The notes beneath the pieces were generated by a model. The model was not told the DNA's origin and made no database searches. It saw nothing but the letters and a program-made list of their open reading frames with translations. DNA of 64,000 bases, taken from assembly GCA_017609645.1 (NCBI GenBank), contig JAFCDQ010000003.1:148846-212845 (forward strand). Direction: 5' to 3'. Position numbers and translations under genes: made by a program. Source of the DNA: Candidatus Woesearchaeota archaeon. GTDB lineage: Archaea > Nanobdellota > Nanobdellia > Woesearchaeales > ARS49. The stretch's first letter is position 1. Every line of letters starts with the position of its first letter. This document shows positions 8,401 to 56,828 of this stretch, piece by piece.

Positions 8401-9253
8401 GTCCTGAGTCATACATTATTTCTTTCTTTGTGATTGTTCTAAATCCTGCTTCATCTTTTGCAGTTATGATTACTTCATTTTTTCCTTCAAATAAATCTAT
8501 TGGGATTGTAAAGTTTCCTTCAACACTTTTGTTTTTTGTTCGTGATTCATCACTATCTTCTTTATTGATTTGTATTATCAGTGTTACTGGTTCATTCACA
8601 TATCCATTAAGTTCAATTATTTTTTGGGTCGTTACATCTTCTATTTTAATTTCTAATTGAGGAGGTTTTGTGTCAACTTTGACTGTGAATTCTTTTGTTA
8701 GTTCCTGTCCTCCTATATTTATTGCAGTTATTTTCAATTTGTTTGTATCTTTTGTTAATGCTATGTTGGTTATTGTGAATAATTCTTCTTTTGTCAGGAT
8801 GTTTTTCTTTTCTATGCCATTAACAAATACTCTTATTGTTGTCTCAGGAATTGTTTTTCCTTTTATCTCGATGCTTGTGCTTTTTGCTACTTCAGGCACA
8901 TCTAAATCTAGATAGAATTCTTTTACTGTGAATGTTCCTTCTCTCAATGCACAATCAGGGGTAAGCAATTCTGTGCAGCTTAGTATTTTATAGACGTATT
9001 CTCTTTGTTCTGTATTAAATGTAAATTCATGATGTGTTTTCTTGTCTTGGTATGCTTCGCCTAAAATTTCCTTAAAAGAGCCGTATCCATATTCAAATGT
9101 TGCATTTGTTGCGATGTCTGTGTTCCAGGATACTGTTGTTGTGGTTTCTGTGTGTGTGAAAACTACATTTGTGATAAAATCAGGTTGTGCTAATACTGAT
9201 ATTGCTAGTGCTATGATAATGAGGATCATGATGTTTTTTATTTTTATTTTCAT
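2405..9253 (-). CDS. Giant secreted surface protein (2282 aa): signal peptide, FN3-like N-terminal module, Cys-rich central region, about 900-aa K/E-rich coiled-coil C-terminus
   Basis: Single uninterrupted ORF. The N-terminus MKIKIKNIMILIIIALAISVLAQP is a signal peptide, and TVSWNTDIATNATFEYGYG is an FN3-like start. The C-terminal third is heptad-like and Lys/Glu-rich. Its start overlaps the stop of the upstream pilin-like gene by 4 nt. Confidence 0.8.
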   Translation of the reverse strand: MKIKIKNIMILIIIALAISVLAQPDFITNVVFTHTETTTTVSWNTDIATNATFEYGYGSFKEILGEAYQDKKTHHEFTFNTEQREYVYKILSCTELLTPDCALREGTFTVKEFYLDLDVPEVAKSTSIEIKGKTIPETTIRVFVNGIEKKNILTKEELFTITNIALTKDTNKLKITAINIGGQELTKEFTVKVDTKPPQLEIKIEDVTTQKIIELNGYVNEPVTLIIQINKEDSDESRTKNKSVEGNFTIPIDLFEGKNEVIITAKDEAGFRTITKKEIMYDSGPPQFIETNLEELTPSYKKAVIVRGKLNEKASVTVFLNGKAEKTVLTENDGTFAAQIVLKTTGAGMTSSEMRATLQAGGGYANKIKLQAVDAVGLMTETPESIVEYAICGYGTWFESRISTPIPDILTPRLMFEGMQQIGLAFELEYKGVNKIRLRSNAIKANAMMLSPAVANQYDNGWVNINTIATPVRGYENEKVKGYIQFNFNPLDLLSDDPEALTSDRLMELSNHREGNCLVPGFGCGRFMLELEIPFQEVKKRWVTDPYSGESVEEEISENKVQKICIEQEMMIDKLIPADIIPSGALEFLSRRFGDIIKGIDFILKPIETVGKVATIGCLAGNVLMYVFQVQKTLNCELNAAASFLSGKGFNPNIAKSGMCEIYTGETQTNCKSCQDAVETYNQVKSIYQQVCDRVACPDAPTLQTYIKRQQNRISEIKNIPKNAETAKYAIDGKIYQGSDCAAWIKQNKKGVKGKLMISNDEVKKIYGNYLKHQDDGEKEKITGLSCSGIHPATAECCGYEYMDTWGSACGLSKLEFLDTFDEIKESTCLSSERVGQNKFEVGKEKVECNKLWNSVAGFCEAKGGPTPETYKIVKFSDDKIKELGLSEFSPEQMLYVFVIPLTEEQKVLMSLTKSTSLYTVKLGYVVEVLNFQKSEQSGIIAEGKRHYLNAKLEAIELEAAEADTFFTPEIIEEYYATGKIKNIEGFQKALCTAAGKGASCITKARATELYESIITKIGSEDKEYIVRPSSGLLRSGQCICLPGMVANLKLWKNILTASKNCFDVVRTTGEGSEGVCQAVLETYVCDLIFNVVKCFSEKYSMPKANKRVEIGGVENVLTALTTSASNVGRDVEERYGGTGLYKAMFVDRKLVHSMCSFAFTGTWSLDPDVLFDMSLEEVPIDSSAVIFPCSRRFIGYDPSSYPVKGSAKWLYHFGIMIAPGSDLNLRLKLKCSQGYKCKETDGFLKGECDCRQGEKELEVTPPEIAGTISKYDILNKELFIPLQGDQSMVRYDTAELSWSWTDPNGQFRDDSVTCSIGQTGTHPPNFCAFDLFTLSFRCVFGEQEGGVMFRDLTIKAPHTIKQNKKEITIFTIKDKFEAELAISQDYPSPPKPVYNKFLAWQIKDAKGRIVTQKDPASETFAGKTILNTNGDYTVSTLDAGIGNIFVTKEWMGEKTIGMRILEWDKDKETAKMSDTLSQSDIRLSFIRPGELQLFEEFKIIREEKQPYAASISYLLVIDEENGELVYRIHESKDLEDKVKNSAYGFEYTERINLDKGDYKTKIVFIDKAKNIEVVINLPAKDKIGKIKGKRKEFKIIQTIAGDICADAKTKYQPQRFTVIFQAYDADKYGNPTSMQSIDPVIGSPVEMKKEFYVVCEIPEKEIIEEATANDLLFQIRQALDPLDGYINDEKVISDNINVFLQKTDMAKIYVDITNYIEREAEPLESQVEEKLLELIDKYNALAKETEKLQADDLAKILDILTRKLQRFNEVKKNDADIKAYLKGVIDLIEDAQKEKEKVLTEAERLTGVALPPKASEGEAIAKIKEIAIDTIIAKSKSARGQLKEVLPAIQTGKYYTPADTARDHINTYFTELARAEKQITELLESVKTTSQLTEINKFMKNLATKKQIIDDLKKNILKKSSEESVKQNIQKTINEIAEIEIRAMLYVGKITYFKNTLNFLFNNIDAEKELRIKRNAGQATKNQIQKTEIKFLRELQKNYYELPQTLNDLKLNNEWKKQMNAFDMELRKCMNNYQQNCLDNLIIVKENLKTSVVLIRLEFKGEIKPAVKPSPKALNSEMKRYTQTADDAKVFILDILKNSKDYVSGQNMADNLQYLKGKIKAYKAKLSDIHHGYQLQQLNNIIAALDSITPEQTGKYRMEQYVNETLKIPAHLISKSIIEREQQVKKDLLYTEESDLALMRNVLPEEYKLWIYLADNGDLWGVLTLEENFLKVASNIGLTRFDKYQEKIDECRAYKDYVCTEELLLEMINEKYNRVNEIFNY

Positions 9254-11241
9254 TTTATTATTGGCAGCAGTGCTGTTTGGTATTTTGTTGTAGCGTCATA
9301 ATATCCTTTATCTAAAAATGCGAGCAGGTTCTGCAGGTCTTGTTCTCTTGAAGGGTTTGGTCTGTATTCAACCAAATTTAATTGTATTTTATCTTTGCCT
9401 AATAAATCATGATAACTTACTCCATAATTTTCTTTTTGGTATCCTCCTATTATCATGTCTCCTGCTACTAGATACATTTCTAGTTCATATCGCGCATCAT
9501 CTAGTACAAAGTCCAGAGTTTCATCTTCTGGGAAGATTTTATATTGTTCATAATCTGTTCCTTTTAGTTTTAATGACAGCATAATTCTTTCTTTGTCTTT
9601 TAGTTTGAATCGGTTTTGGTCTGTCTGCCATTGTCTCATGTTTGATTGATATGGATGTATCACAAATTCTGGTTTTAATGCCTGTAGTTTTTTCAGGTAT
9701 ATATCCAGTGTGTCTTGTGTAAGCCATTGTGCTGAGTCAAGATATCCTTTTTTTGTTGCAAGTACTCTTGGATTGCCGCAGCCTTGAGGAACATTTGTTC
9801 TTAATTCAATATCCCCGTTGCTTTGTACTTGTGTCTCACCCATTTCGCAGTCTATGCTCATACATTCTAATGTTATGTTTACTTCTTCAAGAGGTATGCC
9901 AACTGGGCTGTATGGTTCAAAGCCTAGTACTTTGATTTTTATTTCTCTTTCCCCTTGTTCTTCACAAAATCCTGAGCCAATATACATTGGTTCAAATTGT
10001 CTCATGCCAAAGTTAACTCTTTCAGGCGCATTGTCACTTATTATTACTGGCGTTCCAAATTGAAATACAAATCCTTGATTGTCAAATGCTTTGTCGTCTT
10101 TTACTATGACTTTTAGAGGATATATTATATCATATGTGAAGTGCCATTGGTTCATGCAGAAAAATGGTATTAAGTTTTTTGATCCTTTTGCCACCTCACT
10201 TTTTAGCCATTTGCCGTCGTGAGGAAGAGCGCTCATTAATAATTGTGAAGGGTCATAAACAAATTTGACTTTCAAGTCTGTGCTTGAAAGTTTTGGATCA
10301 AATGTCATCTTGTTTATTTCATACACATCTGCAGGAATATCTCCTTCAATTTCTACTGAACTTATTTTTCCTTTGATCAAGTCTTCTGTGATGTCTTCTC
10401 CTTTACTTTTTAATTCGTCATATACTCTTTGCGCTGCTAGCGGCGCTGGTTGAGGAGTATTTTTGATTCTTATCATAGGTATTGTGTAGAATAATATTTT
10501 TTTCATTCTTTCTTGCACTGTTTCTAGGTTCCATTTCTTTTGTGTGCATCCTGCTTCCATTCCTCCTAATGGTATTTTGTCGTCTCCACTCATCATGTCT
10601 ATTGTAAGTTTTTCCAGCCATTTTTGTTTGTTTTCTTCTGCCAGGATTTGTACTGCTGTATCATACATTTCTCTGTATCTTGATTCTTGCAATGCAAAGT
10701 ATTCAGAATGCATGACTGTTCTTTGTTGTGTGTTTATGTTTAGCGGCCATTTTATTTCTGCCACTACTTCTTCTTCTGCATATGTCACTAAAACATCTGG
10801 TTCTTCTAATATTTGCACCATTTGGGATGGCGCTAATGCTTGAAAGTTAACACAGGTTTGTATTTCTTGTTTTATGTATCTAGCTAGTTGTGTTTGCATT
10901 AGTCCATAACTAGGTATTCTGTTTTCTGTTTCATAATACCAGAATGGAACTTTCACAACTCCTAATGAATCTGCATTGATGTAAGAATCTGGATTGCTTA
11001 ACACAAATGCAGGGATTTCTATGTATCCTCCTTGCAGTCCTTGTATTATTAGTCCTTGTTTTAGTGCATTTTTTGCACAGTCATTTACCATGTCAAATAC
11101 TGGTCTTACGTCACTGGGAACACTTGGTGCAGTTCTCCAGGGCTTAGCAGCTTCTGTCGTTACAAAGTATAGAACCATTCCTATTGTGATTATTAAGATT
11201 AAACCTAAGATTATGAATATTGTTAGTTGTCCTTTTCTCAT
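9250..11241 (-). CDS. Large (663 aa) protein with a class III (type IV prepilin-like) signal peptide; paralog of the 711-aa protein at 18052..20187
   Basis: N-terminus MRKGQ followed by about 22 hydrophobic residues (LTIFIILGLILIITIGMVLYFV). A Shine-Dalgarno-like AGGGGT lies 3 nt before the ATG. Shared motifs with the 711-aa paralog are QGGYI, PFWYY/PYWWY and CVNFQAL/CVNNFAGL. Confidence 0.7.
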   Translation of the reverse strand: MRKGQLTIFIILGLILIITIGMVLYFVTTEAAKPWRTAPSVPSDVRPVFDMVNDCAKNALKQGLIIQGLQGGYIEIPAFVLSNPDSYINADSLGVVKVPFWYYETENRIPSYGLMQTQLARYIKQEIQTCVNFQALAPSQMVQILEEPDVLVTYAEEEVVAEIKWPLNINTQQRTVMHSEYFALQESRYREMYDTAVQILAEENKQKWLEKLTIDMMSGDDKIPLGGMEAGCTQKKWNLETVQERMKKILFYTIPMIRIKNTPQPAPLAAQRVYDELKSKGEDITEDLIKGKISSVEIEGDIPADVYEINKMTFDPKLSSTDLKVKFVYDPSQLLMSALPHDGKWLKSEVAKGSKNLIPFFCMNQWHFTYDIIYPLKVIVKDDKAFDNQGFVFQFGTPVIISDNAPERVNFGMRQFEPMYIGSGFCEEQGEREIKIKVLGFEPYSPVGIPLEEVNITLECMSIDCEMGETQVQSNGDIELRTNVPQGCGNPRVLATKKGYLDSAQWLTQDTLDIYLKKLQALKPEFVIHPYQSNMRQWQTDQNRFKLKDKERIMLSLKLKGTDYEQYKIFPEDETLDFVLDDARYELEMYLVAGDMIIGGYQKENYGVSYHDLLGKDKIQLNLVEYRPNPSREQDLQNLLAFLDKGYYDATTKYQTALLPIIK

Positions 11242-11297
11242 ATTACCCCTTTTTTTACTTTTGCTGCCTTTTTTGAGCTTACTTTTATAGTCTTGCT

Positions 11298-11392
11298 AAC
11301 CGCGACAGGGGGTTGCCCCCTTCGGGGATGTCGCCACTCAAATAAACTTTGCAGTCAAGCGAATTGGCAGCAAAGTCTACCCCCTTGTTCCC
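11298..11392. other. GC-rich structured intergenic element (candidate small RNA, leader or attenuator) between the 297-aa membrane-protein gene and the 663-aa pilin-like gene
   Basis: The only strongly GC-rich island in the window. Outer stem GCGACA (11302-11307) pairs with TGTCGC (11329-11334) and encloses a GGGGG-UUG-CCCCC hairpin (11308-11320). That hairpin competes with a CCC-UUCG-GGG tetraloop hairpin (11318-11327). A second 7-bp stem ACTTTGC/GCAAAGT (11346-11352 / 11370-11376) has a 17-nt loop. I found no tRNA cloverleaf. Confidence 0.35.
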
Positions 11393-12286
11393 CTAAAGTT
11401 TAAATTTTTCAATAAATGTTTTCAAATAATTTCTCAGCCACACTACAAGAAGCGCTAACAATAATGCTTGTATGTAAAATGTTGTTGTTGGCGTTAAAGT
11501 TAATGATAATAATGAAAGTATTACTGCAATTAAAAAATAAATAAAGATAATGTAGCTTATTGGATTGAGGCATTTTGATATTAATGTCAGACTTTGTATT
11601 CCTTTTGCAAAGCTTTGTTTTATTTTGTTTGTTTTCAGCATATTGTAATGCAAAAATGTTGTCATATATATGTAAAATACAAGGAATATTGTAGGAATTA
11701 GTGATACTGCTATTTGTCCAGCGAAAGCATCTTCTTTCGGTGCAAAAATATAATATAATATTCCCCACATCAGCCACCATAATAAGTTTAATGCAAAAAA
11801 CTTAAGCAATTTTTTCTTGTTGAATTTTTGTTTAAGTAGTTTTAGCCAAACAAAATATTTCAATATTGAGTATATTATTAAAAGCAAAAGCAAAAATACT
11901 GCGAATATTAATATGATGTAAACGATTGTTTGCTGTGCTAATGCTAGATTTTGTTGTATTGCTTCAAATGTTTGTTCTGTCAATTGTGTTGAAGCGATTT
12001 TTTCAGCGACTTTAGAAACTAATTTTAGCGCCCCTTGTAATAAAAAGAAGAATATTACCAAATAGGCTATATCTAAAACAAATATTGTGAAGATTGTTTT
12101 GTTGAATTTAAATGATTTCAGGAATGTTTGGAACTTTTTCTTGTCTGTTTTTGTTGGAATAAGCAGGACTAATCCTGCTAGCGCAAGTATGATAAAAAGA
12201 TTTTGTTTAACAAATATTGTCAATCCTATTCCTGCTAAAATACTTATGATCCCTATTACTTTTTGTGTTATGTTTTTTATTTTCAT
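11393..12286 (-). CDS. Polytopic integral membrane protein, hypothetical (about 8 predicted TM segments)
   Basis: 297 aa, almost entirely hydrophobic helices. It lacks prepilin-peptidase and archaeosortase motifs. Its start overlaps the upstream gene's stop by 4 nt. Confidence 0.6.
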   Translation of the reverse strand: MKIKNITQKVIGIISILAGIGLTIFVKQNLFIILALAGLVLLIPTKTDKKKFQTFLKSFKFNKTIFTIFVLDIAYLVIFFFLLQGALKLVSKVAEKIASTQLTEQTFEAIQQNLALAQQTIVYIILIFAVFLLLLLIIYSILKYFVWLKLLKQKFNKKKLLKFFALNLLWWLMWGILYYIFAPKEDAFAGQIAVSLIPTIFLVFYIYMTTFLHYNMLKTNKIKQSFAKGIQSLTLISKCLNPISYIIFIYFLIAVILSLLSLTLTPTTTFYIQALLLALLVVWLRNYLKTFIEKFKL

Positions 12287-14811
12287 ATTAATGTACCATC
12301 TTCTGCATCTTCTGATTGTAAGTTATTTGCTGCCAGATTTCTTGAATCCATTGTGCTTGCCGGTCCTGCTCCTGCAAATGGCACACAATATTCACTTTTT
12401 GCACCTGGGAAATCTGCATCAGTCCATTGCATAGCTGCTGGAAGAAGTCCTCCTGTAATTGAACCAATTCCACCTAATATTGTTCTTGCCCATAAGTCTT
12501 CATAATCTTGAACAAATTCATCTATTTTTTCTTTAAACACTAAACAAATTTGATTATAATCTGTTGTGCTGTATTTGATAAAGTGTCTTGTTGCGCCTTG
12601 TCCTGGTTTGAGATATTTCCAGTCAGAGAACCATCTTGCTCGTCTTTCAGGGCCTCTGAATTCTACATTCACGTGCAAGTCTCTGTCTAATGGATTATTT
12701 ACTCTCATTTGTGCATTGTAAAGCCACATAGTGATTACTTCCATTTTCTTTATGTCGAGTTTTGGATCTGTGAAATCTACTTTTACACCGTCAATAAATG
12801 TCTGTTCTCCAAATAAATCTACTAATTCTTGTCTTGTTAATCCTTTGAATTCTATTGAGTCTGATCTCTCACCCACAAGTAAGGCAGCTCCCATTGGTGC
12901 TGCAGTGTCAGGCCCTTTTGTTAGCATGTAATTGCTTGGGCTTGAACTGATAAATCCTTCACATATATGTGATGTCCAGCATTCTTTTAATCCACCTATC
13001 ACACAGAATTTATCTTGAATCTCCTGCTTTCTCTTTGCAGCTTCTTGTAAATAATCAGAATCAAATATTAATGCGCTTAAGTATGCAAATCCCTTATATT
13101 GATTGAATGAATGTGTTAATACTCCTAGAAATCTCCACGTTCCCATTGCACTTATCTTTTTGCCTACAGAAACTGGCAAAGTTAAGTATATTGTTATCAT
13201 TTTTTGTTTGGCTTTTTCTAGCATTTTTTTCATTGCTGGAGTTAATCCTTTTTTTGCCAATAATGCATCATAAAGTTCATCAAATGTTAATGCTTTTCCT
13301 GTTGTTTTTGCTTTTGCTAATAAAGCATCTAATTCAGTATTCAATTTTTTTATAGACTCTCGTGATAATCCTTGCTCTTTTGCTGCATCTTCTAAGACTT
13401 TTTTCGCTTCCTCAAAAAGAGCAGTTGCAATTGCTAAATCTTCATCTGCTGTTGCTGAATCAAATCTTGCTATGTCTTCATTTTCCTCTGCTATTTCTAA
13501 CTTTACTTTATCTTGATCAAGCAATTTTTTTGCTTCTTCAATTGTATCAAGAGTTCGTTCTGCATCTGCTTTCATAACTTCTAATTTTGCTTTGTATTCA
13601 TTTTCCTTTGCTTGCTCTAGTTTTGTTTCTGCTTCATAAAAAGCTTGTTTTGCTTTTTGATATTCTTCTCCTGGTTTTGCTGTTGTTGTTGCTTCTTGTG
13701 CTTTGTCAAATTCAGTTAATGCCTTGGTATATGCAGTTACTGCAGTTTCATACGCTTTATCTGCTTCTATGCTTGCTAATGTATTTTGGTACAGTATTTG
13801 TGAATTTTGATATTTTGCTTCTGCATCTCTATATTCTTCTAGTACATAGTTATATACCTGCTCTGCTGATTCACTATATCGTTTTGCTTCATTTAGTTCT
13901 AACAGTTTTTTCCCTCTATCCATCTCTGCATTTTCTTTATCTTGTGTCGTTGCGTCTTCTATCACTTCCCATGCCAAAAGATCGTTGCTAACTTTTAGAT
14001 AGTCTTCGCCGATTTGTTCTACGGCTAAATCTATAAAATTTCCATCGTTATCAAGTGTATAAGACTTAAATGTGTCTTTGTCTTGCATTACATTAAAGAT
14101 TGTGTTCCATTTTCCTGCAATAAACACTTCTTCAGTACTTCCAATTTTGTTGCCTTGATAATATTGGTTTTTTATTTTTCTTTTTAATTGCCCTGTTTTT
14201 TTGTCAATTACTAACTCAACTTTTGAAACTTGATATCCTAAGTTTGCTTTTTTGTCTGCTTCTGATAATTCTTTATGCAGTTTACTTGCCTTGTCTAGAA
14301 CATATTCTTCTACTGTTCTTCTTAATTCACCATTAGCACTTAATTTGTTTTCAGTTCTTATTGTTGTTTTGTATTCTTTTAATCCTCTGCTCCATTCTTG
14401 TGTGCTTTTGCCCCAGTAATTTATGCTTCCATCTGCTTCAACTCTAAAAGAATCTGCTTTTTTGATATCTTCATATATATTTGAAGTTAGATATTTGTTT
14501 TGGACATATCCTTCAGCTTGTAAGTCTTTAGCACTTACAACGACATCTTTGATTTTGAGTTCTCCTTTTATTAAAGGAATAATTCTGTTATTCTTTGAAG
14601 AAACATAGTAGTCTGCACTACCTGGAGTTTGTTTCATTTTATCTGTCACTGTTTCTTTTGCAGGTTTAGGCGTGATTCCTATTTTATTATCTTCAATCAA
14701 CTTATTTACAGCTCCTTTTTCTGGAGCTTTAGTATCTGCTGCATAAGCTATAAAGCTACTTAAGAAAATCATGATTATCATTATTCCTATAAATCTTCTA
14801 GAATGGTTCAT
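12283..14811 (-). CDS. Large secreted protein (about 840 aa) with a central coiled-coil region of about 190 aa
   Basis: The track ORF extends to 14895. The in-frame Met at 14811 gives a signal peptide (MNHSRRFIGIMIIMIFLSSFIAYAA) and cuts the overlap with the upstream gene to 14 nt. The central segment is A/E/K-rich and heptad-like. Confidence 0.65.
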   Translation of the reverse strand: MNHSRRFIGIMIIMIFLSSFIAYAADTKAPEKGAVNKLIEDNKIGITPKPAKETVTDKMKQTPGSADYYVSSKNNRIIPLIKGELKIKDVVVSAKDLQAEGYVQNKYLTSNIYEDIKKADSFRVEADGSINYWGKSTQEWSRGLKEYKTTIRTENKLSANGELRRTVEEYVLDKASKLHKELSEADKKANLGYQVSKVELVIDKKTGQLKRKIKNQYYQGNKIGSTEEVFIAGKWNTIFNVMQDKDTFKSYTLDNDGNFIDLAVEQIGEDYLKVSNDLLAWEVIEDATTQDKENAEMDRGKKLLELNEAKRYSESAEQVYNYVLEEYRDAEAKYQNSQILYQNTLASIEADKAYETAVTAYTKALTEFDKAQEATTTAKPGEEYQKAKQAFYEAETKLEQAKENEYKAKLEVMKADAERTLDTIEEAKKLLDQDKVKLEIAEENEDIARFDSATADEDLAIATALFEEAKKVLEDAAKEQGLSRESIKKLNTELDALLAKAKTTGKALTFDELYDALLAKKGLTPAMKKMLEKAKQKMITIYLTLPVSVGKKISAMGTWRFLGVLTHSFNQYKGFAYLSALIFDSDYLQEAAKRKQEIQDKFCVIGGLKECWTSHICEGFISSSPSNYMLTKGPDTAAPMGAALLVGERSDSIEFKGLTRQELVDLFGEQTFIDGVKVDFTDPKLDIKKMEVITMWLYNAQMRVNNPLDRDLHVNVEFRGPERRARWFSDWKYLKPGQGATRHFIKYSTTDYNQICLVFKEKIDEFVQDYEDLWARTILGGIGSITGGLLPAAMQWTDADFPGAKSEYCVPFAGAGPASTMDSRNLAANNLQSEDAEDGTLI

Positions 14812-17800
14812 ATTCTGGTTCTCCTCCGTTTTCTCCAGACGCTGTTGTTTTATCATATTCTTCTGCCCATTCTTCCATTTCACCGCACCATTCATTTGTT
14901 ACCATTCCCATTTCATTTTGTCTGTTTGTCATTGCAGCAATACTTGCCCATGCTTCTCCTACTTCTGCAGCTACCCTATACAATGAGCATGCTGTATGAA
15001 TTTGTGCTGGTTTTGTTTCACAAGTCAAGTCACACCAGGTTCCAAAGAATGTTGTAACTATTGTCCATGGATTTGCTAGCATCTCACCTAGCATTTGACT
15101 GATTCCTTCAAAGAATTGTGAGAATGGTATTATGTCAAATAAGGGTCCGCCCCATACATATGCGCAGTTCATGTAATGATTTGTATCTTTGCAATAACTT
15201 ATTGGAACTCCTGTTTCTTTCCAGTCTTTTTCTAAGCAGGTTGCATATTTGCATTCTATTTGTGCTATTTTATTGATGTTTCTGATAATTCCTGGCAAAC
15301 AAAGACATGCCGTGCTTAAGTAAATATTATCTTTTATATTTGTATACATTCTCATGTTTCTTTCGCCTTCTCCGAGATTTCGCATGTTTCCTTGCATCAT
15401 TGCCCAGCCTGCTGTTAAGCTGCCACCTTGATCCATTATCCAGTCTTCAAATGCAGTGCACCATGGAGCTCCTCCTCCAACTAGATTTTCAATTCCCCAT
15501 TGGTCTTTTCCTCCGCTTGACTGACAATTTACTACAGCGCAGGCTTTGTCTAAGATTGTGTATAATGGAACTCCTAGTAATTTTTCTTCTTCAGGTATTA
15601 CTATTTTTTTGAATGAGGATTGTTTTCCTCCATATGCTCCGTCTATTTTTTCTTCTATTTCACATATTGGAGCTCTTGTGAGATAGATTGATTGGGATAT
15701 TGCAGGTCCAAAGACAGGAATGGCGCTTGTTGAGTCTTCCACGTTTCCTATTACTGCAACTAGTGCTGCTCCTGTTGATATTATGCTTGTTATGATTCCT
15801 TTCCATTCACATACTTCTTCTGCTATGTTAACTATTTCATTCATTGTTTCTAAAAGATCTGATTTAAGCACTCTTGCAGTATCCACAGCTTCTTTGATTG
15901 TTTTTTCTCTTCGTTCATAAATATCTCCAAGAGGCAAATCATAAAATTCTAAAAGAATGTCTACATCTTCTTCTTGAGGTGTTGTGTATATTGTTTGTTC
16001 TCTTTTTGAGTAGATTGTTAATGGACATGATAAGCTTAAATTATCTAGATAATAATCTCTTGCAGGAAGTTGTATCATAAAGTAGGGATTTGTGCTTCCT
16101 GGTGCTGTGTTTATTGTGCTTATATCGTCAATAAAGTTTGTTGTATTTCCAATACAATCATTTATTGATGTAGGTCCGATGATGCTTACTGTTTCTGCGC
16201 TTGAGCTTGTGCTTAAATCAACTTCACATACTACTCTTTGAGGTAGTTGTGATGTTGTTTTTCTGTCTATTGGCTGCGGCCTGCATGTTACATCACTTGT
16301 CCAGTATTTTCTTGCAGTGTCAACATCAAGTTCATATATTGTCATGTTGTATTCTGTTTCTGTTGTGTCATCAAATATGTCTGTGAATATGAAATTTATT
16401 GTTGCTTCTGCTGGTCCGCTTATGTCAACTACACTTTCAAACAAACATTCATCTAATCCTGTTATGCTGCTTAAGCTGCATTCAACAGCGTCTGAATCAC
16501 TTTCACCGCCTATTGCACTAAAGTCAGCAAAAGCATTTTCAAAGTTTTTGCTTTCTACAACAAATTGGACTGTGTCTCCTCTAACTGCTTCTCCTCCTAC
16601 ACCTTCTGGTCCTGGAATTACTATATAGTCTATTACTTTTGGTTTTAATGGTCCTTCGCTTTGATAAAATATTTCAAATTCTTGTCCAGAGTCTATTTTG
16701 TTTCCTAAATCATCTTGCGTGTCTGAGGATAATTCAAAATCATATATTCCTGAATTTGTTGTTAAGAAATTTGGATGTATGTTCCATTTGCAGTCCCATT
16801 TGTCAGCTGCAGTATTCTCGCACAAATCTGCTTGTAATTTTTTATCTGCAGATCTTCCTGTTAGATCATAAATGTTAAGATATGCTTTTCCTAGGTTCAT
16901 TCCTACTCCTGGATCACCGTCAGTATCTTTTTCTGAGAATATAATTGTGAAATAAGAATTATAAGCTGCTATTGGGTTTCCGTCTCCATCTACTGGCCCT
17001 TTTCCAATCTGAACAACAACAGGTGATTTATCATCTGCTTCTATATCAAAATCAAGTGTTCCTTGGCCTTGATTTCCTATGTTGTCTGTTGCTCTTACAA
17101 GTATTGTTCCAGAACTTTCTTCATCAACTTCCAGACCAGTCCAGTAATAAAAATTAGGAATTTGTTTATTTGAATAAGGAACTAATTGCACATTGTCATT
17201 AAATGGAGTTAGTTTTGCTTTTACTGTTGCATCTTCTATTCCGCTTAAATCAGTGATTTCTGCTCTGACACTTACTTGCTCGCTTCTTCCTGGCAGGACA
17301 TGTGTTATTTGTGCTCCTTCTGCATTTGTTAATGCTACTTCTATTGTTGGAGCTCCTTCATCTATGTAAAAATCATCACAAGCAGTATCTTCTCCGTCTA
17401 AGAAATCTCTAACAGTTGCGCATGCTCTTAGTTCATTTTCATCTCCATCATATATATAATCAAATCCTTCTGTTATTTCGCATTCTCCGGCCTCGCCTGT
17501 TATTGTTCCTACTTCTTCCATGTTAACATAGAATATGATTTCTTTTATTCCTGAGCATTCTGCTGATGCAGTTGTTGTGCCGTAATCTTTTGCCGTTACA
17601 GCAAAATTTACAGGGCCTGTTGTCATTTCTGGTTCTACATTAAAGCTTATTATTTCTGGGTCTGTATCATCTATGATTATTGTTTCTTCTAATGTTTCTC
17701 TTAAGATTGTATCTTGGTCATGAAGTGTTACTTTAAAGTCTATTTTTTCTTGTCCAATAAGATCTAATTCATCAGTATACGTGCAGGTGTAATAATCATC

Positions 17801-18055
17801 TGTTCCTTTTTGGCAAGTATCAAATGGCGCAAACACATTGCCTATCCAGAAGTTGACTCTTGATGGAAGTATGTTTTCATTTAACAGCATTGCTTTTGCT
17901 TTTATTGTCAAGGTATCTTTTGATCTTGCAAAGCCGTTTGCTTCATCTTCTCCGCTGTATCTGACCAGCTGCAAGTCAGATGTTTCTGCAATTGATATTG
18001 GAAGCAGAACTATCAGGATGATCATCATTATTGATATTTGTTTTTTTGAGTTCAT
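14798..18055 (-). CDS. Giant secreted protein (1085 aa) with acidic DxDxDG-like calcium-binding-type motifs and a Cys-rich C-terminal domain
   Basis: Signal peptide MNSKKQISIMMIILIVLLPISIAETS. Motifs DTDGDPGVG, PVDGDGNPI and DDTDPE are present. Its start overlaps the stop of the 711-aa pilin-like gene by 4 nt. Confidence 0.75.
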   Translation of the reverse strand: MNSKKQISIMMIILIVLLPISIAETSDLQLVRYSGEDEANGFARSKDTLTIKAKAMLLNENILPSRVNFWIGNVFAPFDTCQKGTDDYYTCTYTDELDLIGQEKIDFKVTLHDQDTILRETLEETIIIDDTDPEIISFNVEPEMTTGPVNFAVTAKDYGTTTASAECSGIKEIIFYVNMEEVGTITGEAGECEITEGFDYIYDGDENELRACATVRDFLDGEDTACDDFYIDEGAPTIEVALTNAEGAQITHVLPGRSEQVSVRAEITDLSGIEDATVKAKLTPFNDNVQLVPYSNKQIPNFYYWTGLEVDEESSGTILVRATDNIGNQGQGTLDFDIEADDKSPVVVQIGKGPVDGDGNPIAAYNSYFTIIFSEKDTDGDPGVGMNLGKAYLNIYDLTGRSADKKLQADLCENTAADKWDCKWNIHPNFLTTNSGIYDFELSSDTQDDLGNKIDSGQEFEIFYQSEGPLKPKVIDYIVIPGPEGVGGEAVRGDTVQFVVESKNFENAFADFSAIGGESDSDAVECSLSSITGLDECLFESVVDISGPAEATINFIFTDIFDDTTETEYNMTIYELDVDTARKYWTSDVTCRPQPIDRKTTSQLPQRVVCEVDLSTSSSAETVSIIGPTSINDCIGNTTNFIDDISTINTAPGSTNPYFMIQLPARDYYLDNLSLSCPLTIYSKREQTIYTTPQEEDVDILLEFYDLPLGDIYERREKTIKEAVDTARVLKSDLLETMNEIVNIAEEVCEWKGIITSIISTGAALVAVIGNVEDSTSAIPVFGPAISQSIYLTRAPICEIEEKIDGAYGGKQSSFKKIVIPEEEKLLGVPLYTILDKACAVVNCQSSGGKDQWGIENLVGGGAPWCTAFEDWIMDQGGSLTAGWAMMQGNMRNLGEGERNMRMYTNIKDNIYLSTACLCLPGIIRNINKIAQIECKYATCLEKDWKETGVPISYCKDTNHYMNCAYVWGGPLFDIIPFSQFFEGISQMLGEMLANPWTIVTTFFGTWCDLTCETKPAQIHTACSLYRVAAEVGEAWASIAAMTNRQNEMGMVTNEWCGEMEEWAEEYDKTTASGENGGEPEYEPF

Positions 18056-20187
18056 CTTAATACTGGTTTTAATAATGGCGCTTTAGCGATTGATTCATCT
18101 TTTATTTTGGTTATTTGGTCTAAATCTTCTATAAATCTTTGATCTTGAGGTACTTTGTCTATTGCAAGTGAAAAATATGTAAGCAGTAATTCTTCAGAAT
18201 CATATAGTTTATCAGGTGTGACTGTGAAGTCTATCTCCATCATAGTTGTTGGAAATGGATTTTCTGCATTAAATATCATGTCTTCTGGAGGTAGGTCATA
18301 CGATCTTCGTTTAGTTATAGGAATAAGTCCAAATATTTTTTCTGGTTCTATATATCTTGTGTCTTTTGGTATTACTATGTTTTTTGTTAAAAAGCCTGTT
18401 ATGGTGATTTTGTAGTTTCCTGGGATTAATGTTATTGTGTTTTCTTTTCCTCCTGATAAATCTGTTATTGCTGCAAAATCATCTTCAAACTGGCCTGGTT
18501 CTTTTGTAATCATAACCATCAATTCTTCTTCTTTATCTACTGGATGAAACTCGGTTGTATCTAGTTTCCATTTTCTTACTCCTTCTTTTTCATACAAATA
18601 TTTTCTGGCATTTACTTTGAGTTCTTTTTCTGGATACATTGTTATTGCAAGTTTTCCTTCTTTATCTCCTGTTGTTAATGGAGCATATATTGTCATGTAT
18701 CCTTGTCTTTTGATTTCTAATAATCCGTTCAAGCATCTTGGGAATTTAGAATTAAATATTCCTTGTGCTGTTGTTCCTAGCGCACATGCTGTGTCTCCAC
18801 AAGTGTAGATTATTGATGCATCATCTATGAATTCTTTTGTTGCATAATCTTTCAACTCGATATTTATTTCTCCGCTTGTTCTTTGGTTTGCTTTGCAGAA
18901 TAGGTTAGAGTCAAGATTTTTTAATGCTGCTGCCAGTTTTGTGTTTGATGTGAATGGATTATTATTTCTTAGGTTTGCTTCTAAGAAGAATTTAAAGCTG
19001 TATCCTTTGCCGCCTAGTGCATTTGGATTTGTTATCTCAACTAATACAGGTATGCTTATGTCATATGCAAAATTGTATTTTTGTATTCCAAATATGAAGA
19101 AGCTTTCTGATAATAATGAATTGTCAGGCCTGCATAATTCTCCGTCACAGTTTAAGTCTATGTAGGGTTTCCACCAGTCAAGATAATAAAATCTGACTTC
19201 TAAATCAGGATGAGGCGTGTCCATTGGTATTAAGAACTGTCTGTTGTACATTAGTTCATATGCTTCTGCATCTCTCACACCAGGTGGAGAAGGAACATAG
19301 TTGAAGTTTCTTGTTCCGCTTAATTGTAATAATGGAATATAGCTTGTGAGCATTTGAGTGATTTTCTTTTGTACTTTACTTTTTAACCAAAAGGTTTCTT
19401 TGCCTGTTTCAAATGTCATGTCAGATACAGGAGGCAGTGCATTTTTGTCAAGCTCAGAGAATGAATAAACCAGTTCTTTTATTGCATTTTCCAAGAAGGT
19501 GTATTCTATTTCTATGTTTGTTATGTCTGTTGCTAAATCATATATTTCTTTTAGGTTTACATTCACTGTTGCTGCAAAGTTAGCTAAGTCTTGTGTTGTT
19601 TTGTCTTTTGTTGCTTCTAACTCCCAATCTAATGAAATTAGAATGTCATTATCGCGGATGATTAATTCCACGTCAGGTCTTGATTTTTCTTCAACAACAT
19701 AGCCTTGTTCTCTTAATCCTGCAAAATTGTTGACGCATGCTGCAATGTTTTCTTCTACATAATCTGTTAATTGTTCTTCTATGTTTATTTTTCTTCCTGA
19801 GTATAGTTCAGGTCTTTTTGTTTCAAATGCACATTTGTCCTGGCATTTGTTTGGACTTTGCATATACCACCAATATGGTGATACAGGACCTTTCCCTCCT
19901 AATGATACTGCATCTGCTTCTGTTGGCGCATAAGGATTTTGTGCATAGTCAGGCAGGATATATCCTCCTTGCGAGCCTAATAAGTCAAGTCCATCTATTG
20001 TTGTTTTCTTGATGCAGAGCAGCACATAACTTGTTACAGGATCTGCTTCTGCGATTGGCACTACAGGAGTTATTGCTTTTCTTTCTATTGGTTTTTCCGC
20101 AACCTGAACAAAATAGATGACTAAAGCTATTGTGATTAATAGAATTATTCCTATTATAATGAACAATGTTACTTGTCCTTTTCTCAT
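18052..20187 (-). CDS. Large (711 aa) protein with a class III (type IV prepilin-like) signal peptide; paralog of 9250..11241
   Basis: N-terminus MRKGQVTLFIIIGIILLITIALVIYFV. A Shine-Dalgarno-like AGAGGAAAC precedes the ATG. It shares the N-terminal domain with the 663-aa paralog. Confidence 0.7.
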   Translation of the reverse strand: MRKGQVTLFIIIGIILLITIALVIYFVQVAEKPIERKAITPVVPIAEADPVTSYVLLCIKKTTIDGLDLLGSQGGYILPDYAQNPYAPTEADAVSLGGKGPVSPYWWYMQSPNKCQDKCAFETKRPELYSGRKINIEEQLTDYVEENIAACVNNFAGLREQGYVVEEKSRPDVELIIRDNDILISLDWELEATKDKTTQDLANFAATVNVNLKEIYDLATDITNIEIEYTFLENAIKELVYSFSELDKNALPPVSDMTFETGKETFWLKSKVQKKITQMLTSYIPLLQLSGTRNFNYVPSPPGVRDAEAYELMYNRQFLIPMDTPHPDLEVRFYYLDWWKPYIDLNCDGELCRPDNSLLSESFFIFGIQKYNFAYDISIPVLVEITNPNALGGKGYSFKFFLEANLRNNNPFTSNTKLAAALKNLDSNLFCKANQRTSGEINIELKDYATKEFIDDASIIYTCGDTACALGTTAQGIFNSKFPRCLNGLLEIKRQGYMTIYAPLTTGDKEGKLAITMYPEKELKVNARKYLYEKEGVRKWKLDTTEFHPVDKEEELMVMITKEPGQFEDDFAAITDLSGGKENTITLIPGNYKITITGFLTKNIVIPKDTRYIEPEKIFGLIPITKRRSYDLPPEDMIFNAENPFPTTMMEIDFTVTPDKLYDSEELLLTYFSLAIDKVPQDQRFIEDLDQITKIKDESIAKAPLLKPVLR

Positions 20188-27643: not shown

Positions 27644-29950
27644 TTATTTGGAATTAGAATCTTTTTTCTCTATTTTTTTTAAAGTTCTCTCTTTTCCAAG
27701 TTGAGCTAACATATCTTCAGATCCTATTTTTAGAGCTGTTTCATAAGAAGTAAGTGCTTCGTCTAATCTATCTACTCTTTGTAGAACATCTCCTCTAAGA
27801 ATATAAGGCAATGCATCATCAGGATATAACTCTATTGCTCTTTCATAAAACTTAAGTGCTTCTTCCAATTTTCCTGATCTTTCTAAAATACTTCCTTCCT
27901 TACAATAAGGAATTCTTGTTAGAATTTTGGTTTTGTAATCTTCATAATCATCACATTCAGTATTTTCATTTTCTTCTTTTTGTTGTTCTAGTTTTCTTTC
28001 AACTTTTCTTTTAAAAACTTCATAAAATTCTTTTTTCCTTGGCTTTAATTCAATTGCTTTATCATAATATTTATTTGCTTCTTCTAGCTTACCCAATTCT
28101 TCTAACGCCTCTCCTTTACTACAATAATAATGTGCTTTTTCTGGATCTAGGTCTATTGCTAAATCATACTGTTCAATGGCGTCTACTAGTTTACCTAATT
28201 TCCTCAATGCGTCTCCTTTACTACAATAATAATGTGCTTTTTCTGGATCTAGGTCTATTGCTAAATCATACTGTTCAATTGCATCTTTGAATTCTCCTAA
28301 TTCTTCTAAAGCCACTCCTTTTGTAAAATAAAAAAAAGAATCATTTGGTTCAATCTCAATTGCTTTATTATAAAATTCAATTGCTTTTTCAGGATTATCT
28401 TCTTCAATTTCTTGGCCTTTAAGCAAAAAAGAAAAAGCATCTTTTTCTCTCTCAATATTAGAACTTTCACCCCTCTTTTTGAAATCCAAATCTATTACCT
28501 CTTCAGAAACTTTTTGTTCTAATAAAGATGAGTCATCATTTTTTGTTAAAATATCTAAATTAATTAAAGCATCAATAAAATCATCTATCGTTTGATATCT
28601 ATCTTCAGGATAAAATTCTAATCCTTTTTCAATTACTTTTATTATTTTTCCATCAACTTTTGCTTTTTTCAGTGCATTGTAAATTCCCTGAGGACCTGGG
28701 CCTATATTTACTCCTAATGGTTTGCCTGTTAATAACTCATAAAATATTTTGTTTAAAGAAAAGATATCGCTTTTTTCTGTTGGTTTTTTTCCATTTAATT
28801 GTTCAGGAGACATATATAGAAGTGTCCCTTCAAATTCTTTGCTTTGCACAGTCATTATAGACTTTAATGTTTCTGGATTTGACAAAATTTTAGCAAGGCC
28901 AAAATCACAAACCTTAACTTCTAAGTCATCATTTACAAGAATGTTTTCCGGCTTTATATCTGCATGAACAACCCCTTTAGAATGCGCATAAGACAATGCA
29001 TTAGCGACTTGACTTATGATTTTTATTGTTTTTTCTTGGGTAAAATCATTTATCTTTTCTCTTAAATTTGTTGAATTCTCAAAATATTCCATCAATAAGT
29101 ATGGAAATCCCTCTCTTTGAACATGTTCAACAAGAAGTATATTCTCATGCGTTCCTAAACATTTATGCGCCTCAGCTTCTTTAAGAAGTTCGTAACTAGC
29201 ATTAGGTTTTGGGAACTTCATAGTTTTTAAGATATTAGTTTCAGTTTTGACTTTCCAAACAACACCAAAACCCCCTTCACCAATTTTCTCTTCTAAGGTA
29301 TAACCATCAATAATTTGTCCAGAGCTTAAATTTAAAGCTCTTCTTGAGCTTCTTTTAGTTTTAGAAGAAGCAATAAGTTCTATAACATTCAGTTTGCTTT
29401 CTTTTTCAACACTTTCAATATACTTCTTAGCCCAGTTTTCTATTTCTTTAGGAGCTCTCTTAGAGGTTCGTAATTCTGCTTGTAAATTTAATTTAAGTTC
29501 TTCTGTTAATTTATCAAGATTATCAAAAGAATATTTAATCCATCTCTGATTACGCAGATCGGTTGCTTTTTTTAAAGCCTCATCTAAGTCTTGTGAAATA
29601 AACAATATTGGTTTTTTTTGACCAATTAAGAAACCTGTTTCAAGCATCACATTTTCATTTATTTTTTGGCCTTCTTTTTTACTTAAACTCATATCAGAAA
29701 TTCCCATAGTGGCGTACTCTGCAGCAAGTTGGATATCTTCCCAGATAGAACCTTCCCCTAATAAACGCGTAGCACTAAGCACATTTATGCTATATTCCCC
29801 TAAATTTAAACTAGCGTCTTCAATTGCTTTTAGAATTTCTTCAAAATCCTCATTATATTCCTGAGCTACAAATATATAAGGTATTTCTAGCTGAATTTTT
29901 TCTTCTAGTTTAAGTAAATCAAAATACTTCTGTCGAACAACGTTTCCCAT
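27644..29950 (-). CDS. Multidomain signalling protein: N-terminal TIR-like / nucleoside 2-deoxyribosyltransferase-like domain, Hanks-type Ser/Thr protein kinase, C-terminal TPR repeats
   Basis: Kinase motifs GEGGFGVVWKV, HADIKPENILV and DFGLAK. The N-terminus has NENVMLETGFLIGQKKPILFI, which resembles the NDT/COG4271 TIR-like motif. The C-terminus has 34-aa TPR units (AIEQYDLAIDLDPEKAHYYCSKG...). Confidence 0.85.
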   Translation of the reverse strand: MGNVVRQKYFDLLKLEEKIQLEIPYIFVAQEYNEDFEEILKAIEDASLNLGEYSINVLSATRLLGEGSIWEDIQLAAEYATMGISDMSLSKKEGQKINENVMLETGFLIGQKKPILFISQDLDEALKKATDLRNQRWIKYSFDNLDKLTEELKLNLQAELRTSKRAPKEIENWAKKYIESVEKESKLNVIELIASSKTKRSSRRALNLSSGQIIDGYTLEEKIGEGGFGVVWKVKTETNILKTMKFPKPNASYELLKEAEAHKCLGTHENILLVEHVQREGFPYLLMEYFENSTNLREKINDFTQEKTIKIISQVANALSYAHSKGVVHADIKPENILVNDDLEVKVCDFGLAKILSNPETLKSIMTVQSKEFEGTLLYMSPEQLNGKKPTEKSDIFSLNKIFYELLTGKPLGVNIGPGPQGIYNALKKAKVDGKIIKVIEKGLEFYPEDRYQTIDDFIDALINLDILTKNDDSSLLEQKVSEEVIDLDFKKRGESSNIEREKDAFSFLLKGQEIEEDNPEKAIEFYNKAIEIEPNDSFFYFTKGVALEELGEFKDAIEQYDLAIDLDPEKAHYYCSKGDALRKLGKLVDAIEQYDLAIDLDPEKAHYYCSKGEALEELGKLEEANKYYDKAIELKPRKKEFYEVFKRKVERKLEQQKEENENTECDDYEDYKTKILTRIPYCKEGSILERSGKLEEALKFYERAIELYPDDALPYILRGDVLQRVDRLDEALTSYETALKIGSEDMLAQLGKERTLKKIEKKDSNSK
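28101..28269 (-). repeat. Identical 67-nt segment repeated at 102-nt (one TPR unit) spacing inside the kinase gene
   Basis: 28101-28167 equals 28203-28269 exactly; both encode TPR units, which suggests recent unit duplication or gene conversion. Confidence 0.8.
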
Positions 29951-55004: not shown

Positions 55005-56708
55005 TTATTTTGGTCTGTAAACTGTTGCATGTTTTGCATTGTCTTCTGCAACTTTTGCTTTCTTGCCTTGCATATATTTCTCTACACCCTCTTTAACTTC
55101 GTCGTGTTTTAATCCAAGTATTTTTGCTGCAGCTAAAGCAGAATTAGTTCCGCCATATGCAACTGTTGGAGCAACTCCGCTTGGTGTTTGTAAAGAACTC
55201 CAAACTTCATTTGAATCTTTGTCAGATTTATTTTCATAATTAATTATCACTGGATTTAATGTCCTTGCTGCAATAGAAGGTCCTTTTCCATTTGACATTC
55301 CTGTTACATCAATGTAAATAATATCTCCTGAATAAGAATCAAACCAGTCTACTAATTCAAATAAACTTTCAGGATCTCTATGTGCTGATGCAACATTTAT
55401 TCCATGAGGTATATTTAATGCTTTTAATGTTTTTGAAATGTTTTTCACAGGAGACTTTTCCTTCTCAATATCACTTCCAGATCCTGCAATTATTGAAACA
55501 AAATATCCTTTTATTAATTTGTCATTTTGGCTATATGTACAATTTAGATTATGGCAGACTATATGTGACTGATCAAAGTAAGAATCTCCAACTTTTAATC
55601 CTTCTACAACATCGTCTAAATCAGCACCTGTCAAAAATTCATGTGCTTGGCAAATTATTTTTGCTGCTTCTAAACGAACAGAGTCAGGCAATACAACTCC
55701 TTTCTTTTTCCATAAACCTGCCTCTTGCAGATATTTTCTAACATATTCTTTGTCAAAAGCTTGAGGCTCTTCTTCTGCTTCAAATCTTTCTTGATAAGTT
55801 TCTAATTCCCAAAATCTTGAAGAATCTGTTGTAAACCATTCATCAGCTAAAACTACACAATCAGCAGGCTCAGTATAATTTATTTTTTGCTCTTTTGTGT
55901 ATTTTCTGACTCCCCATTCAAACTTTGTGTCAACAAATATTTTGCCTTTTTTCGCTAATTCTTCTGCTCCTAATTTATATAATTTTTTTGAACAATCAAT
56001 CACATAATCAAGAACATTTCTATCACTAATTGAAGCACTCAATAGCAAAGATCTCTCTTCTTCACCCTCGACTATAGGCAGAGGTAAAACAATCTTATTA
56101 AATCTCTTTTGCAAAAATTCATATGCCTCTTCAACAGTTATGCCAGGATCTCCGTCTGCTTTTGTTGTTATTGTAACAATTGGCTTAACAAACTTTGCAT
56201 TTTTCTTTATCTCGCCACCTTCAAACATGTCTGGCGTTAGTTCAATACCATATTGTTCATAGAATTTATTGTTTGTTGAAGAATGCCTCTTTCCATAATC
56301 TATAATTTGATTAAAATCTCGCCAAGCAGATCCTGTTATAAATCCCCTAACTATTACTTCTAATCCTAAAGTATGTAATTGCTCAATAAGCATTGAATTT
56401 GTAGTTAATCTTTTTTTTAGATGATGCTGACAAATCTGCTCTTCTTCAATCTTTTTTGCCCAATATTCCTGAACTTCAACAAATAAAGCTCCTTTAAGCG
56501 GAATAGCACCAGTAAGTTCTACATCTCCTGCAGAAATCCTGTCTGTTGTGAATTGTATTCCTTCTATATCATTTATCTCATAATTATCTCTTACTTTGCC
56601 TTTATGAAAGCCTCCCTCAGGCACTCCTAACTCTGGAAAGCATGTTGTTTCAAGAACTCTATTTTCTTCAATCATAATTTTTAATGTTTCATCTACAGAC
56701 ATTTGCAC
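55005..56708 (-). CDS. purCE: Bifunctional SAICAR synthetase (eukaryotic Ade1-like PurC) fused to AIR carboxylase (PurE); PAICS-like domain order
   Basis: N-terminal GKVRDNYEI...TTDRISAGDV matches the SAICAR synthetase fold. The C-terminal IAGSGSD...SAHRDPE...AYGGTNSALAAAKILG matches PurE. Confidence 0.8.
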   Translation of the reverse strand: MQMSVDETLKIMIEENRVLETTCFPELGVPEGGFHKGKVRDNYEINDIEGIQFTTDRISAGDVELTGAIPLKGALFVEVQEYWAKKIEEEQICQHHLKKRLTTNSMLIEQLHTLGLEVIVRGFITGSAWRDFNQIIDYGKRHSSTNNKFYEQYGIELTPDMFEGGEIKKNAKFVKPIVTITTKADGDPGITVEEAYEFLQKRFNKIVLPLPIVEGEEERSLLLSASISDRNVLDYVIDCSKKLYKLGAEELAKKGKIFVDTKFEWGVRKYTKEQKINYTEPADCVVLADEWFTTDSSRFWELETYQERFEAEEEPQAFDKEYVRKYLQEAGLWKKKGVVLPDSVRLEAAKIICQAHEFLTGADLDDVVEGLKVGDSYFDQSHIVCHNLNCTYSQNDKLIKGYFVSIIAGSGSDIEKEKSPVKNISKTLKALNIPHGINVASAHRDPESLFELVDWFDSYSGDIIYIDVTGMSNGKGPSIAARTLNPVIINYENKSDKDSNEVWSSLQTPSGVAPTVAYGGTNSALAAAKILGLKHDEVKEGVEKYMQGKKAKVAEDNAKHATVYRPK

Positions 56709-56788
56709 TCACCTCATATCGTTATAAAAACACTATAACCCTTTTTTATATACCTTTTTCGCCACAACAAAATATACTTTCTAGGCTC

Positions 56789-56828
56789 TAAAGCGTCATA
56801 AAGCTTCGTAAAGCTATCTAAAGCTTTG
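56789..56828. repeat. Four tandem 10-bp units TAAAGC-N4 (TAAAGCGTCA TAAAGCTTCG TAAAGCTATC TAAAGCTTTG), with further degenerate TAAAG copies out to 56860
   Basis: TAAAG recurs at 56789, 56799, 56809 and 56819 (exactly 10-nt phasing), then at 56833, about 56844 and 56856. The repeats lie in the 275-nt divergent intergenic region upstream of the GHKL ATPase genes. Confidence 0.5.

Follow-up and report, generated by a model that had tools for sequence, protein, structure and literature searches.

A GC-rich hairpin in an archaeal operon spacer as the probable core of a MITE-family insertion

The GC-rich, hairpin-forming stretch between the genes for a 297-aa membrane protein and a 663-aa pilin-like protein is most probably the core, about 120 nt long, of a MITE-family insertion in an operon spacer, being either a truncated relic or a core-only relative. 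It is proposed that a non-autonomous DNA transposon landed in a spacer of about 20 nt between these two genes of a surface-protein operon, the host being a Woesearchaeota-like archaeon (DPANN). Both the GC-rich hairpin and the inverted repeat of 9-12 nt on its flanks would accordingly have been inherited from the element family rather than evolved as a regulator of the operon. A passenger element that is co-transcribed in the operon, and whose hairpin belongs to the biology of its family, is the best-supported reading of the locus.

The operon spacer and its orthologous loci

The window, by which the whole 64,000-nt stretch of DNA analysed here is meant, is archaeal, encoding ribosomal protein S6e and an archaeal-type GluRS, and has an overall GC content of 32% (mean of 40-nt windows 31.9%, sd 7.9%). 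Both genes of interest lie on the minus strand. The upstream 297-aa ORF (11393-12286) ends with the stop codon TAG at 11393-11395, its C-terminal ...EKFKL* being kept in orthologues, and the downstream 663-aa ORF (9250-11241) begins with the start codon at 11239-11241, which leaves a spacer from 11242 to 11392. The N-terminus of the 663-aa protein, MRKGQLTIFIILG, has the look of a prepilin-type signal. The preliminary description placed the element upstream of the 663-aa gene; the position is right, but the sequence given was that of the plus strand, which is antisense to the minus-strand operon.

Relatives of the 663-aa protein in Woesearchaeota-type metagenome-assembled genomes share 36-64% identity with it, and 17 orthologous loci (L001-L010 and L125-L131) from at least eight lineages were compared. 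Synteny is kept in all 17, the upstream protein ending in ...FK[LVA]*, and the spacers measure 13-53 nt. The element is absent from every one of these spacers, and nhmmer with the family profile gave no match across the 17 loci. In the orthologues AAAAAAGGGGTA stands immediately past the stop codon of the upstream gene, and the Shine-Dalgarno sequence AAAAAGGGGTA follows that codon almost directly. L001 reads AAACTTTA joined to AAAAAAGGGGTATTATG, and it is at this junction that the window holds about 125 extra nucleotides. Because the element is absent from 17 orthologous loci with spacers of only 13-53 nt, the extra sequence is a lineage-specific insertion, for which unoccupied orthologous sites (n = 17), as looked for in a MITE, are at hand. 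These loci also bear on the earlier proposal that the 663-aa gene is controlled by a riboswitch, an attenuator or some other regulatory leader, which is not sustained, the element being missing from 17 of 17 orthologues while its homologues are mobile copies elsewhere. That proposal had itself named lack of conservation in related genomes as evidence against it, and at the orthologous position no conservation was found.

Several further features of the window were recorded. The N-terminal motif MRKGQ[VL]T[LI]FII[IL]G is common to the 663-aa ORF and a 711-aa ORF (18052-20187), both on the minus strand, and the cluster that holds them also encodes very large proteins of 870, 1085 and 2282 aa without a Pfam match, the 2282-aa protein showing weak matches to the Ig-like Big_13 and Glucodextran_B. 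The cluster may represent a pilus-like or surface-structure apparatus specific to the Woesearchaeota-like group. The 1085-aa ORF (14798-18055) and the 870-aa ORF (12283-14895) are listed with an overlap of 98 nt (14798-14895), and the true start of the latter is probably a later ATG. In a 768-aa protein (27644-29950, minus strand) TPR repeats occur together with a Ser/Thr kinase domain, and the protein has weak NCBIfam similarity to the defence-associated kinases MADS6 and PglW. The divergent intergenic region at 56787-56935, between a purC/purE fusion (55005-56708, minus strand) and an ORF at 56984-57862 (plus strand), contains a tandem array of boxes of about 10 nt resembling TCTAAAGCT (56787-56862), then a GC-rich stretch and a perfect 10-bp hairpin, CACTCTTGCG-TTATTA-CGCAAGAGTG (56910-56935). 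Rfam gave no match to this region, which might combine an array of operators and a structured leader.

A family of mobile elements in archaeal metagenomes

A metagenome scan for the window element's 9-nt inverted-repeat pair separated by a variable gap returned 93 loci, and five of them (L043, L092, the identical L066, L024, L058) align to the window along the whole interior with 62-73% identity; over the full length blastn and MAFFT put the identity at 66-72%. When the interior was scored over 97 nt, leaving out the 20 bases fixed by the search pattern, the family loci scored 13-28, whereas the 98 other pattern matches averaged -18 and did not exceed 7. The host contigs are AT-rich, archaeal and metagenomic. 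Each family element is 161-164 bp long and is bounded by 13-nt terminal inverted repeats, GGCTCTGTAGAAA...TTTCTACAGAGCC, that are perfect or carry one mismatch, and the copies are flanked by direct repeats specific to each site (TACAAAAA, TTATAATT, TTGTTGTGC and GTAATTTG). A protein-database search with the concatenated open frames of the element led to a single public protein, P0042, whose L35Ae gene call extends across another copy of the element. This copy (L118-L123) constitutes a fifth site; its 9-bp duplication, TTTTTCTTA, is perfect, and the contig around it is archaeal, with genes for L35Ae, NAC and Sec61-beta. Taken together, the target-site duplications are 8-9 bp long and different at each of the five unrelated sites, two of which have perfect 9-bp duplications and three of which fit 8 bp or an imperfect 9 bp. 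The differing flanks and duplications argue against the metagenome copies being one locus instead of five, and a tblastn comparison of the MITE-bearing contigs with the window revealed no genes in common.

No reading frame is conserved across the family copies, because indels shift the frames between them. Five unrelated sites, terminal repeats, duplications of 8-9 bp and the lack of a conserved frame together identify the family as a MITE, and its dimensions agree with this, the family elements being 161-164 bp and the window core about 121 nt long, and non-coding. P0042 itself (L118:3726-4166, also in L119-L123) is a 146-aa L35Ae call with a 5' extension of about 45 codons through the MITE copy; the true start of L35Ae is likely to be the ATG near L118:3905, and the extension an annotation artefact arising from the element's open frame. 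In the window a small ORF of 58 aa on the plus strand (11227-11403) was also considered and set aside, since it has no real relatives and its frames are not kept across copies.

The kinship of the window sequence with this family was assessed independently by a covariance model, R1, built from an alignment (A3) of the metagenome copies with the window sequence excluded. R1 matches the window at 11257-11388 on the plus strand with 47.8 bits (E ~3e-8), and with filters off it finds no other significant match in the 64 kb, so that the copy number in the window is one, a point against the MITE reading. That the stretch is chance GC-rich filler or an assembly artefact without homologues is hardly credible. 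The single copy in the window, the empty result of the first specific scans of viral and metagenome sequences and fold energies close to those of shuffled sequence would suit such an origin; it is nevertheless refuted by full-length homologues with independent statistical support, by a conserved hairpin and by the invariant 19-nt block GCGAATTGGCAGCAAAGTC.

Other matches were examined and discarded. L023, L117, L124 and L097 are chance matches. The apparent terminal-repeat pair of L062/L108, 1.2 kb apart, suggested an insertion sequence and encloses ordinary genes and no transposase. A loose GC-hairpin pattern run on viral contigs retrieved 12 unrelated GC-rich phage hairpins, and the specific hairpin patterns had no matches in the viral and metagenome collections. 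No transposase or autonomous partner was found enclosed by a matching terminal-repeat pair in the fetched loci, which likewise speaks against the MITE reading.

The structural unit in the window exceeds the 95-nt box drawn initially and extends over 11257-11377, bounded by an inverted repeat and placed on the plus strand in the orientation of the family alignment, antisense to the operon. The left inner repeat, ACTTTTGCTGCC (11257-11268, plus strand), contains 9 nt complementary to 11366-11374, and the right inner repeat is GGCAGCAAAGTC (11366-11377, plus strand), the GCGAATT that precedes it being conserved too. The exact inverted repeat is 9 nt long (TTTGCTGCC at 11260-11268 and GGCAGCAAA at 11366-11374) and becomes 11-12 nt if one T indel is allowed. 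Most MITE copies share GCGAATTGGCAGCAAAGT unchanged at the right inner repeat, its left counterpart is invariant across the family except for a G to A change in L118/L122, and the two arms form the closing stem in the predicted folds of both strands. In L118/L122 the left inner repeat reads GCTACC and not GCTGCC (A4 columns 10 and 113), which breaks one pair of the inner stem, and the inner repeat is therefore not strictly a helix in all copies.

The window copy spans left to right inner repeat and lacks the outer 13-nt terminal repeats, which counts against the MITE reading. It would be either a full-length element that has lost both ends or a core-only relative that ends at the inner repeats. 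The flanks contain a candidate target-site duplication. One putative copy, TACCCCTTT (11244-11252; AAAGGGGTA on the minus strand), is the working Shine-Dalgarno sequence of the 663-aa gene, and the other, TACCCCCTT (11378-11386; AAGGGGGTA on the minus strand), is an orphaned Shine-Dalgarno-like sequence. AAGGGGGTA and AAAGGGGTA match at 8 of 9 positions, one abutting the inner repeat and the other being offset by 4 nt, an imperfection that also counts against the MITE reading although the length is one that the family duplicates. Next to the AAGGGGGTA copy stands AACAA, as it does in some orthologous spacers, that of L008 for one. Judged from these positions, AAGGGGGTA abutting one inner repeat and AAAGGGGTA lying 4 nt beyond the other would favour the core-only reading. 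The G-runs at 11380-11392 are probably flank and not element, and on the core-only reading they are a candidate for the orphaned original Shine-Dalgarno region.

The GC-rich hairpin and its possible roles

The 40-nt GC peak at 11298-11340 reaches 72.5%, about 5 sd over the mean and the highest value in the 64 kb. Within it the outer stem GCGACA (11302-11307)/TGTCGC (11329-11334) closes a hairpin at 11302-11334 that contains GGGGG (11308-11312), TTG, CCCCC (11316-11320), TTC and GGGG (11324-11327). The C-run is able to pair with either G-run, giving two alternative inner pairings. A second stem, ACTTTGC (11346-11352)/GCAAAGT (11370-11376), has a 17-nt loop; its right arm belongs to the inner inverted repeat, and its left arm is a third copy of ACTTTGC specific to the window. 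The preliminary description is thus borne out as to a GC-rich stretch in an AT-rich genome, the peak being the top of the 64 kb, and as to the GCGACA/TGTCGC stem, the GGGGG-TTG-CCCCC hairpin and the 7-bp stem with its 17-nt loop. It had also paired CCCCC with GGG across a UUCG; the alternative pairing is real, but the UUCG tetraloop version has 3 bp at most and the 4-bp version carries a CUUC loop.

The interior segment best conserved in the MITE copies is GCTGACA-AGAGGGTTGTCTCATCCGGAGAA-TGTCAGC, and the AT-rich stretches that flank it vary. Differences in the hairpin are confined to the loops (GUUG to GUCG in L058, AUCCG to UUACG in L024), and the 19-nt block GCGAATTGGCAGCAAAGTC is invariant, also in the window copy. 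The outer stem is kept, at 6 bp in the window as against 7 bp in the MITE copies, whereas the second stem is not conserved, its left arm having no complementary counterpart in the MITE copies. The claim of a structured element holds for the hairpin, which is retained in homologues of about 70% identity, and fails for the 7-bp stem with the 17-nt loop. The central pyrimidine run is UCUC in the MITE cluster and CCCC in the window, where GGGG also stands for the cluster's GAGA in the 3' purine run and for its GAGG in the 5' run; at column 63 T to C is accompanied by A to G at both column 54 and column 71. Since the pyrimidine run changes together with the 5' and 3' purine runs, both mutually exclusive pairings are possible in both lineages, and in this respect the earlier claim survives, in the window and in the MITE cluster, over a single contrast. 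Further pairing registers are possible in such runs, and RNAfold favours another pairing in L092.

Six pairs are altered on both sides and none of 500 shuffles reaches the observed value in an alignment that was itself fitted to the model, the basis being a single phylogenetic contrast between the window and one tight MITE cluster. For covariation, which had been suggested as a check, these six are candidate pairs, within one contrast and with five of the six due to a register shift. These five are outer-stem pairs that appear changed on both sides in the ungapped model alignment; they would amount to a shift of one position, which paired single-base indels seem to explain better, and the outer-stem difference is more simply described as one T-A pair lost plus two loop bases. 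Directional GC enrichment could also mimic covariation, because all stem substitutions are transitions from AT to GC. Folding energy is not clearly beyond that of composition-matched shuffles and is weakly better (z from -0.85 to -2.5), with z-scores of -1.3 and -1.4 for the 39-nt hairpin, -0.9 (minus strand) and -1.8 (plus strand) for 111 nt, and -0.85 (minus) and -2.5 (plus) for 154 nt.

What remains of interest here is that a mobile element conserves a hairpin able to pair in two alternative ways. It is unlikely, though worth weighing, that the GC-rich hairpin is a conserved bistable switch carried on the element or that the inner repeat is a functional end. A bistable hairpin of this kind, whose one pyrimidine run would have co-varied with both purine runs across MITE subfamilies, could be needed, as DNA or as RNA, by the transposition machinery, or could bring a processing signal or mobile riboregulator into operons. 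If the hairpin is a switch, the window copy would be a domesticated and immobilised one that uncouples the second half of the pilus-like operon, and if the inner repeat acts as an end in its own right, the termini of the family would be nested in two tiers.

What the insertion would do in the operon depends in the first place on transcription through it. Oligo-T is known to act in archaeal transcription termination. The plus strand carries T7 (11250-11256) and T6 (11269-11274), and the operon sense strand carries A-runs there. As the sense strand presents A-runs and not T-runs, transcription from upstream probably reads through, and the element would be co-transcribed as a long fold-back in the operon mRNA. 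The terminator scan applied bacterial rules, archaeal termination being judged just by reading T-runs; no intrinsic terminator-like site was detected, and the hairpins have no trailing T-run on either strand. The downstream gene would retain a duplicated Shine-Dalgarno sequence. A TATA-box-like motif, TATAAAA (11283-11289, minus strand), read from the sequence about 45 nt upstream of the 663-aa ATG, may add an internal archaeal promoter with a start about 20 nt upstream of that codon; the equivalent position is AT-rich and TATA-like in every family copy. In the predicted fold of the 221-nt read-through transcript the Shine-Dalgarno G-run pairs weakly with downstream coding sequence, and masking of it by the C-runs of the element is not predicted. 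The conserved hairpin most likely serves the element itself, for instance in recognition by the transposase or a host factor or in transcript stability, and any effect on the operon would be a by-product.

It is also conceivable that the element, once inserted, was recruited as a cis-regulatory leader of the second half of the locus, a distinctly unlikely outcome. The pyrimidine run would then pair alternately with the two purine runs, or else with the Shine-Dalgarno G-runs, both orphaned and working, so as to tune read-through, the processing or stability of the mRNA or translation of the 663-aa gene, to which the TATA-like motif would give a promoter of its own. Both alternative pairings persist over about 30% divergence, the stems of the window copy are GC-enriched despite the AT bias of the genome, and the position within the operon, directly 5' of a Shine-Dalgarno-led gene and with a TATA-like motif inside, would suit a leader. 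MITEs such as the Correia elements of Neisseria are co-transcribed and alter the expression of neighbouring genes, and by analogy they offer a precedent. However, every orthologous locus lacks the element, so the operon works without it; there is no T-run terminator hairpin, the predicted partners of the Shine-Dalgarno G-run lie downstream in the coding region and not in the C-runs of the element, no Rfam match was obtained, and the conserved features are accounted for by inheritance within the family.

Very unlikely, too, is that the core represents a small non-coding RNA gene that was carried or captured by the mobile element and has its own transcription, possibly from the plus strand and hence antisense. 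Structural RNA in AT-rich archaeal genomes classically shows itself as a GC-rich island, which the GC peak fits. Folding is better on the plus strand (z -2.5 vs -0.85 on the minus strand), plus-strand G-U pairs correspond to minus-strand C-A mismatches (GUCAA/UUGGC in the window, the 56-61 column pair in the MITEs), and a TATA-like, AT-rich block stands upstream of the hairpin in every copy. Yet transcription begun 26 nt from the TATA-like motif would start within the hairpin and cut the outer stem, the plus strand has no defined terminator after the hairpin, the fold z-scores are weak, and the sequence conserved outside the hairpin consists of the inverted repeats expected at a transposon end. 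Nor does the core resemble a known RNA, there being no Rfam family and no tRNA, C/D or H/ACA pattern. Rfam 15 gave zero matches over the whole 64-kb window at gathering thresholds, so that the Rfam check that had been recommended yielded no RNA family, and on 351 nt it gave noise alone (E ~8-10). C/D and H/ACA boxes are absent from both strands on inspection by eye. ARAGORN found no tRNA genes over 1-64000, despite the aminoacyl-tRNA synthetase and ribosomal-protein genes there; a tRNA, split tRNA or tmRNA was likewise rejected for the element, ARAGORN reporting none in the 64 kb and the stems misfitting T-arm or acceptor geometry.

If the reading as a MITE-family core is correct, annotation is spared a false riboswitch, GC-rich alternative hairpins upstream of a gene in an AT-rich archaeon having proved to be a transposon relic. 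A MITE family in DPANN-type archaea is documented with defined ends, duplications and a covariance model; it inserts beside promoters and within operons, and it has already corrupted a public L35Ae gene call. Should the conserved hairpin prove functional, RNA structures would be able to pass ready-made from one archaeal operon to another on such elements.

Comparison with known systems

The element shares with riboswitches and attenuators one strand common to two exclusive pairings, 5' of a gene with a Shine-Dalgarno sequence. It differs from them in that it is absent at the orthologous position, its homologues adjoin unrelated genes, and there is neither an Rfam match nor a T-run terminator nor predicted sequestration of the Shine-Dalgarno sequence. 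The hgc RNAs of Methanocaldococcus and Pyrococcus are GC-rich non-coding RNAs of AT-rich archaea, and the sharp GC-rich island of the window, in an AT-rich archaeal genome, recalls them; unlike the hgc RNAs it has no Rfam match at any threshold and appears to be derived from a mobile element and not syntenically conserved. Correia and REP/BIME-type repeats are bacterial, are processed by RNase III and are co-transcribed within operons. The window element resembles them as a short repeat between genes of one transcription unit, in which by analogy a stable mRNA hairpin and promoter-like sequence would be expected. The bacterial repeats are unrelated to it in sequence.

From its ends and duplications the family would be moved by a DDE transposase, of the IS6/IS26, IS1 or IS256 type. 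IS26 has the terminal repeat GGCACTGTTGCAAA and an 8-bp duplication (PMC8477213), the IS6/IS26 consensus is GGTTCTGTTGCAAA, and the ends of IS1 are also GGnnnTG (PMC6807381). The family repeat GGCTCTGTAGAAA has G1, G2, G7 and G10, and 10 of 13 positions, as in GGTTCTGTTGCAAA, a match that is not exclusive to IS6/IS26 because IS1 and IS256 ends are similar. By our own comparison GGCTCTGTAGAAA comes about as near to the ISCth4 terminal repeat given in PMC8477213. The likeness to IS6/IS26 thus consists in this end and in the 8-9-bp duplications of the family; the differences are that no transposase gene was found beside any copy and that the cointegrate mode of movement of IS26 suits a MITE poorly. 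The two perfect 9-bp duplications of the family fit IS1 or IS256, the family of ISCth4, at least equally well.

MITEs in the Woesearchaeal group are not new in kind, since in a census of prokaryotic MITEs a Woesearchaeal genome is reported to be among the densest of the archaea (PMC11602168). In common with prokaryotic MITEs such as the SM-type of Sulfolobus, the family is about 163 bp long, non-coding and furnished with terminal repeats and duplications; it occupies several unrelated intergenic sites and folds back on itself, and for the window copy the orthologous sites are empty. It departs from them in that the window copy comprises the inner core and inner inverted repeat alone, and in that the interior of the family is an unusually conserved GC-rich hairpin instead of a simple palindrome.
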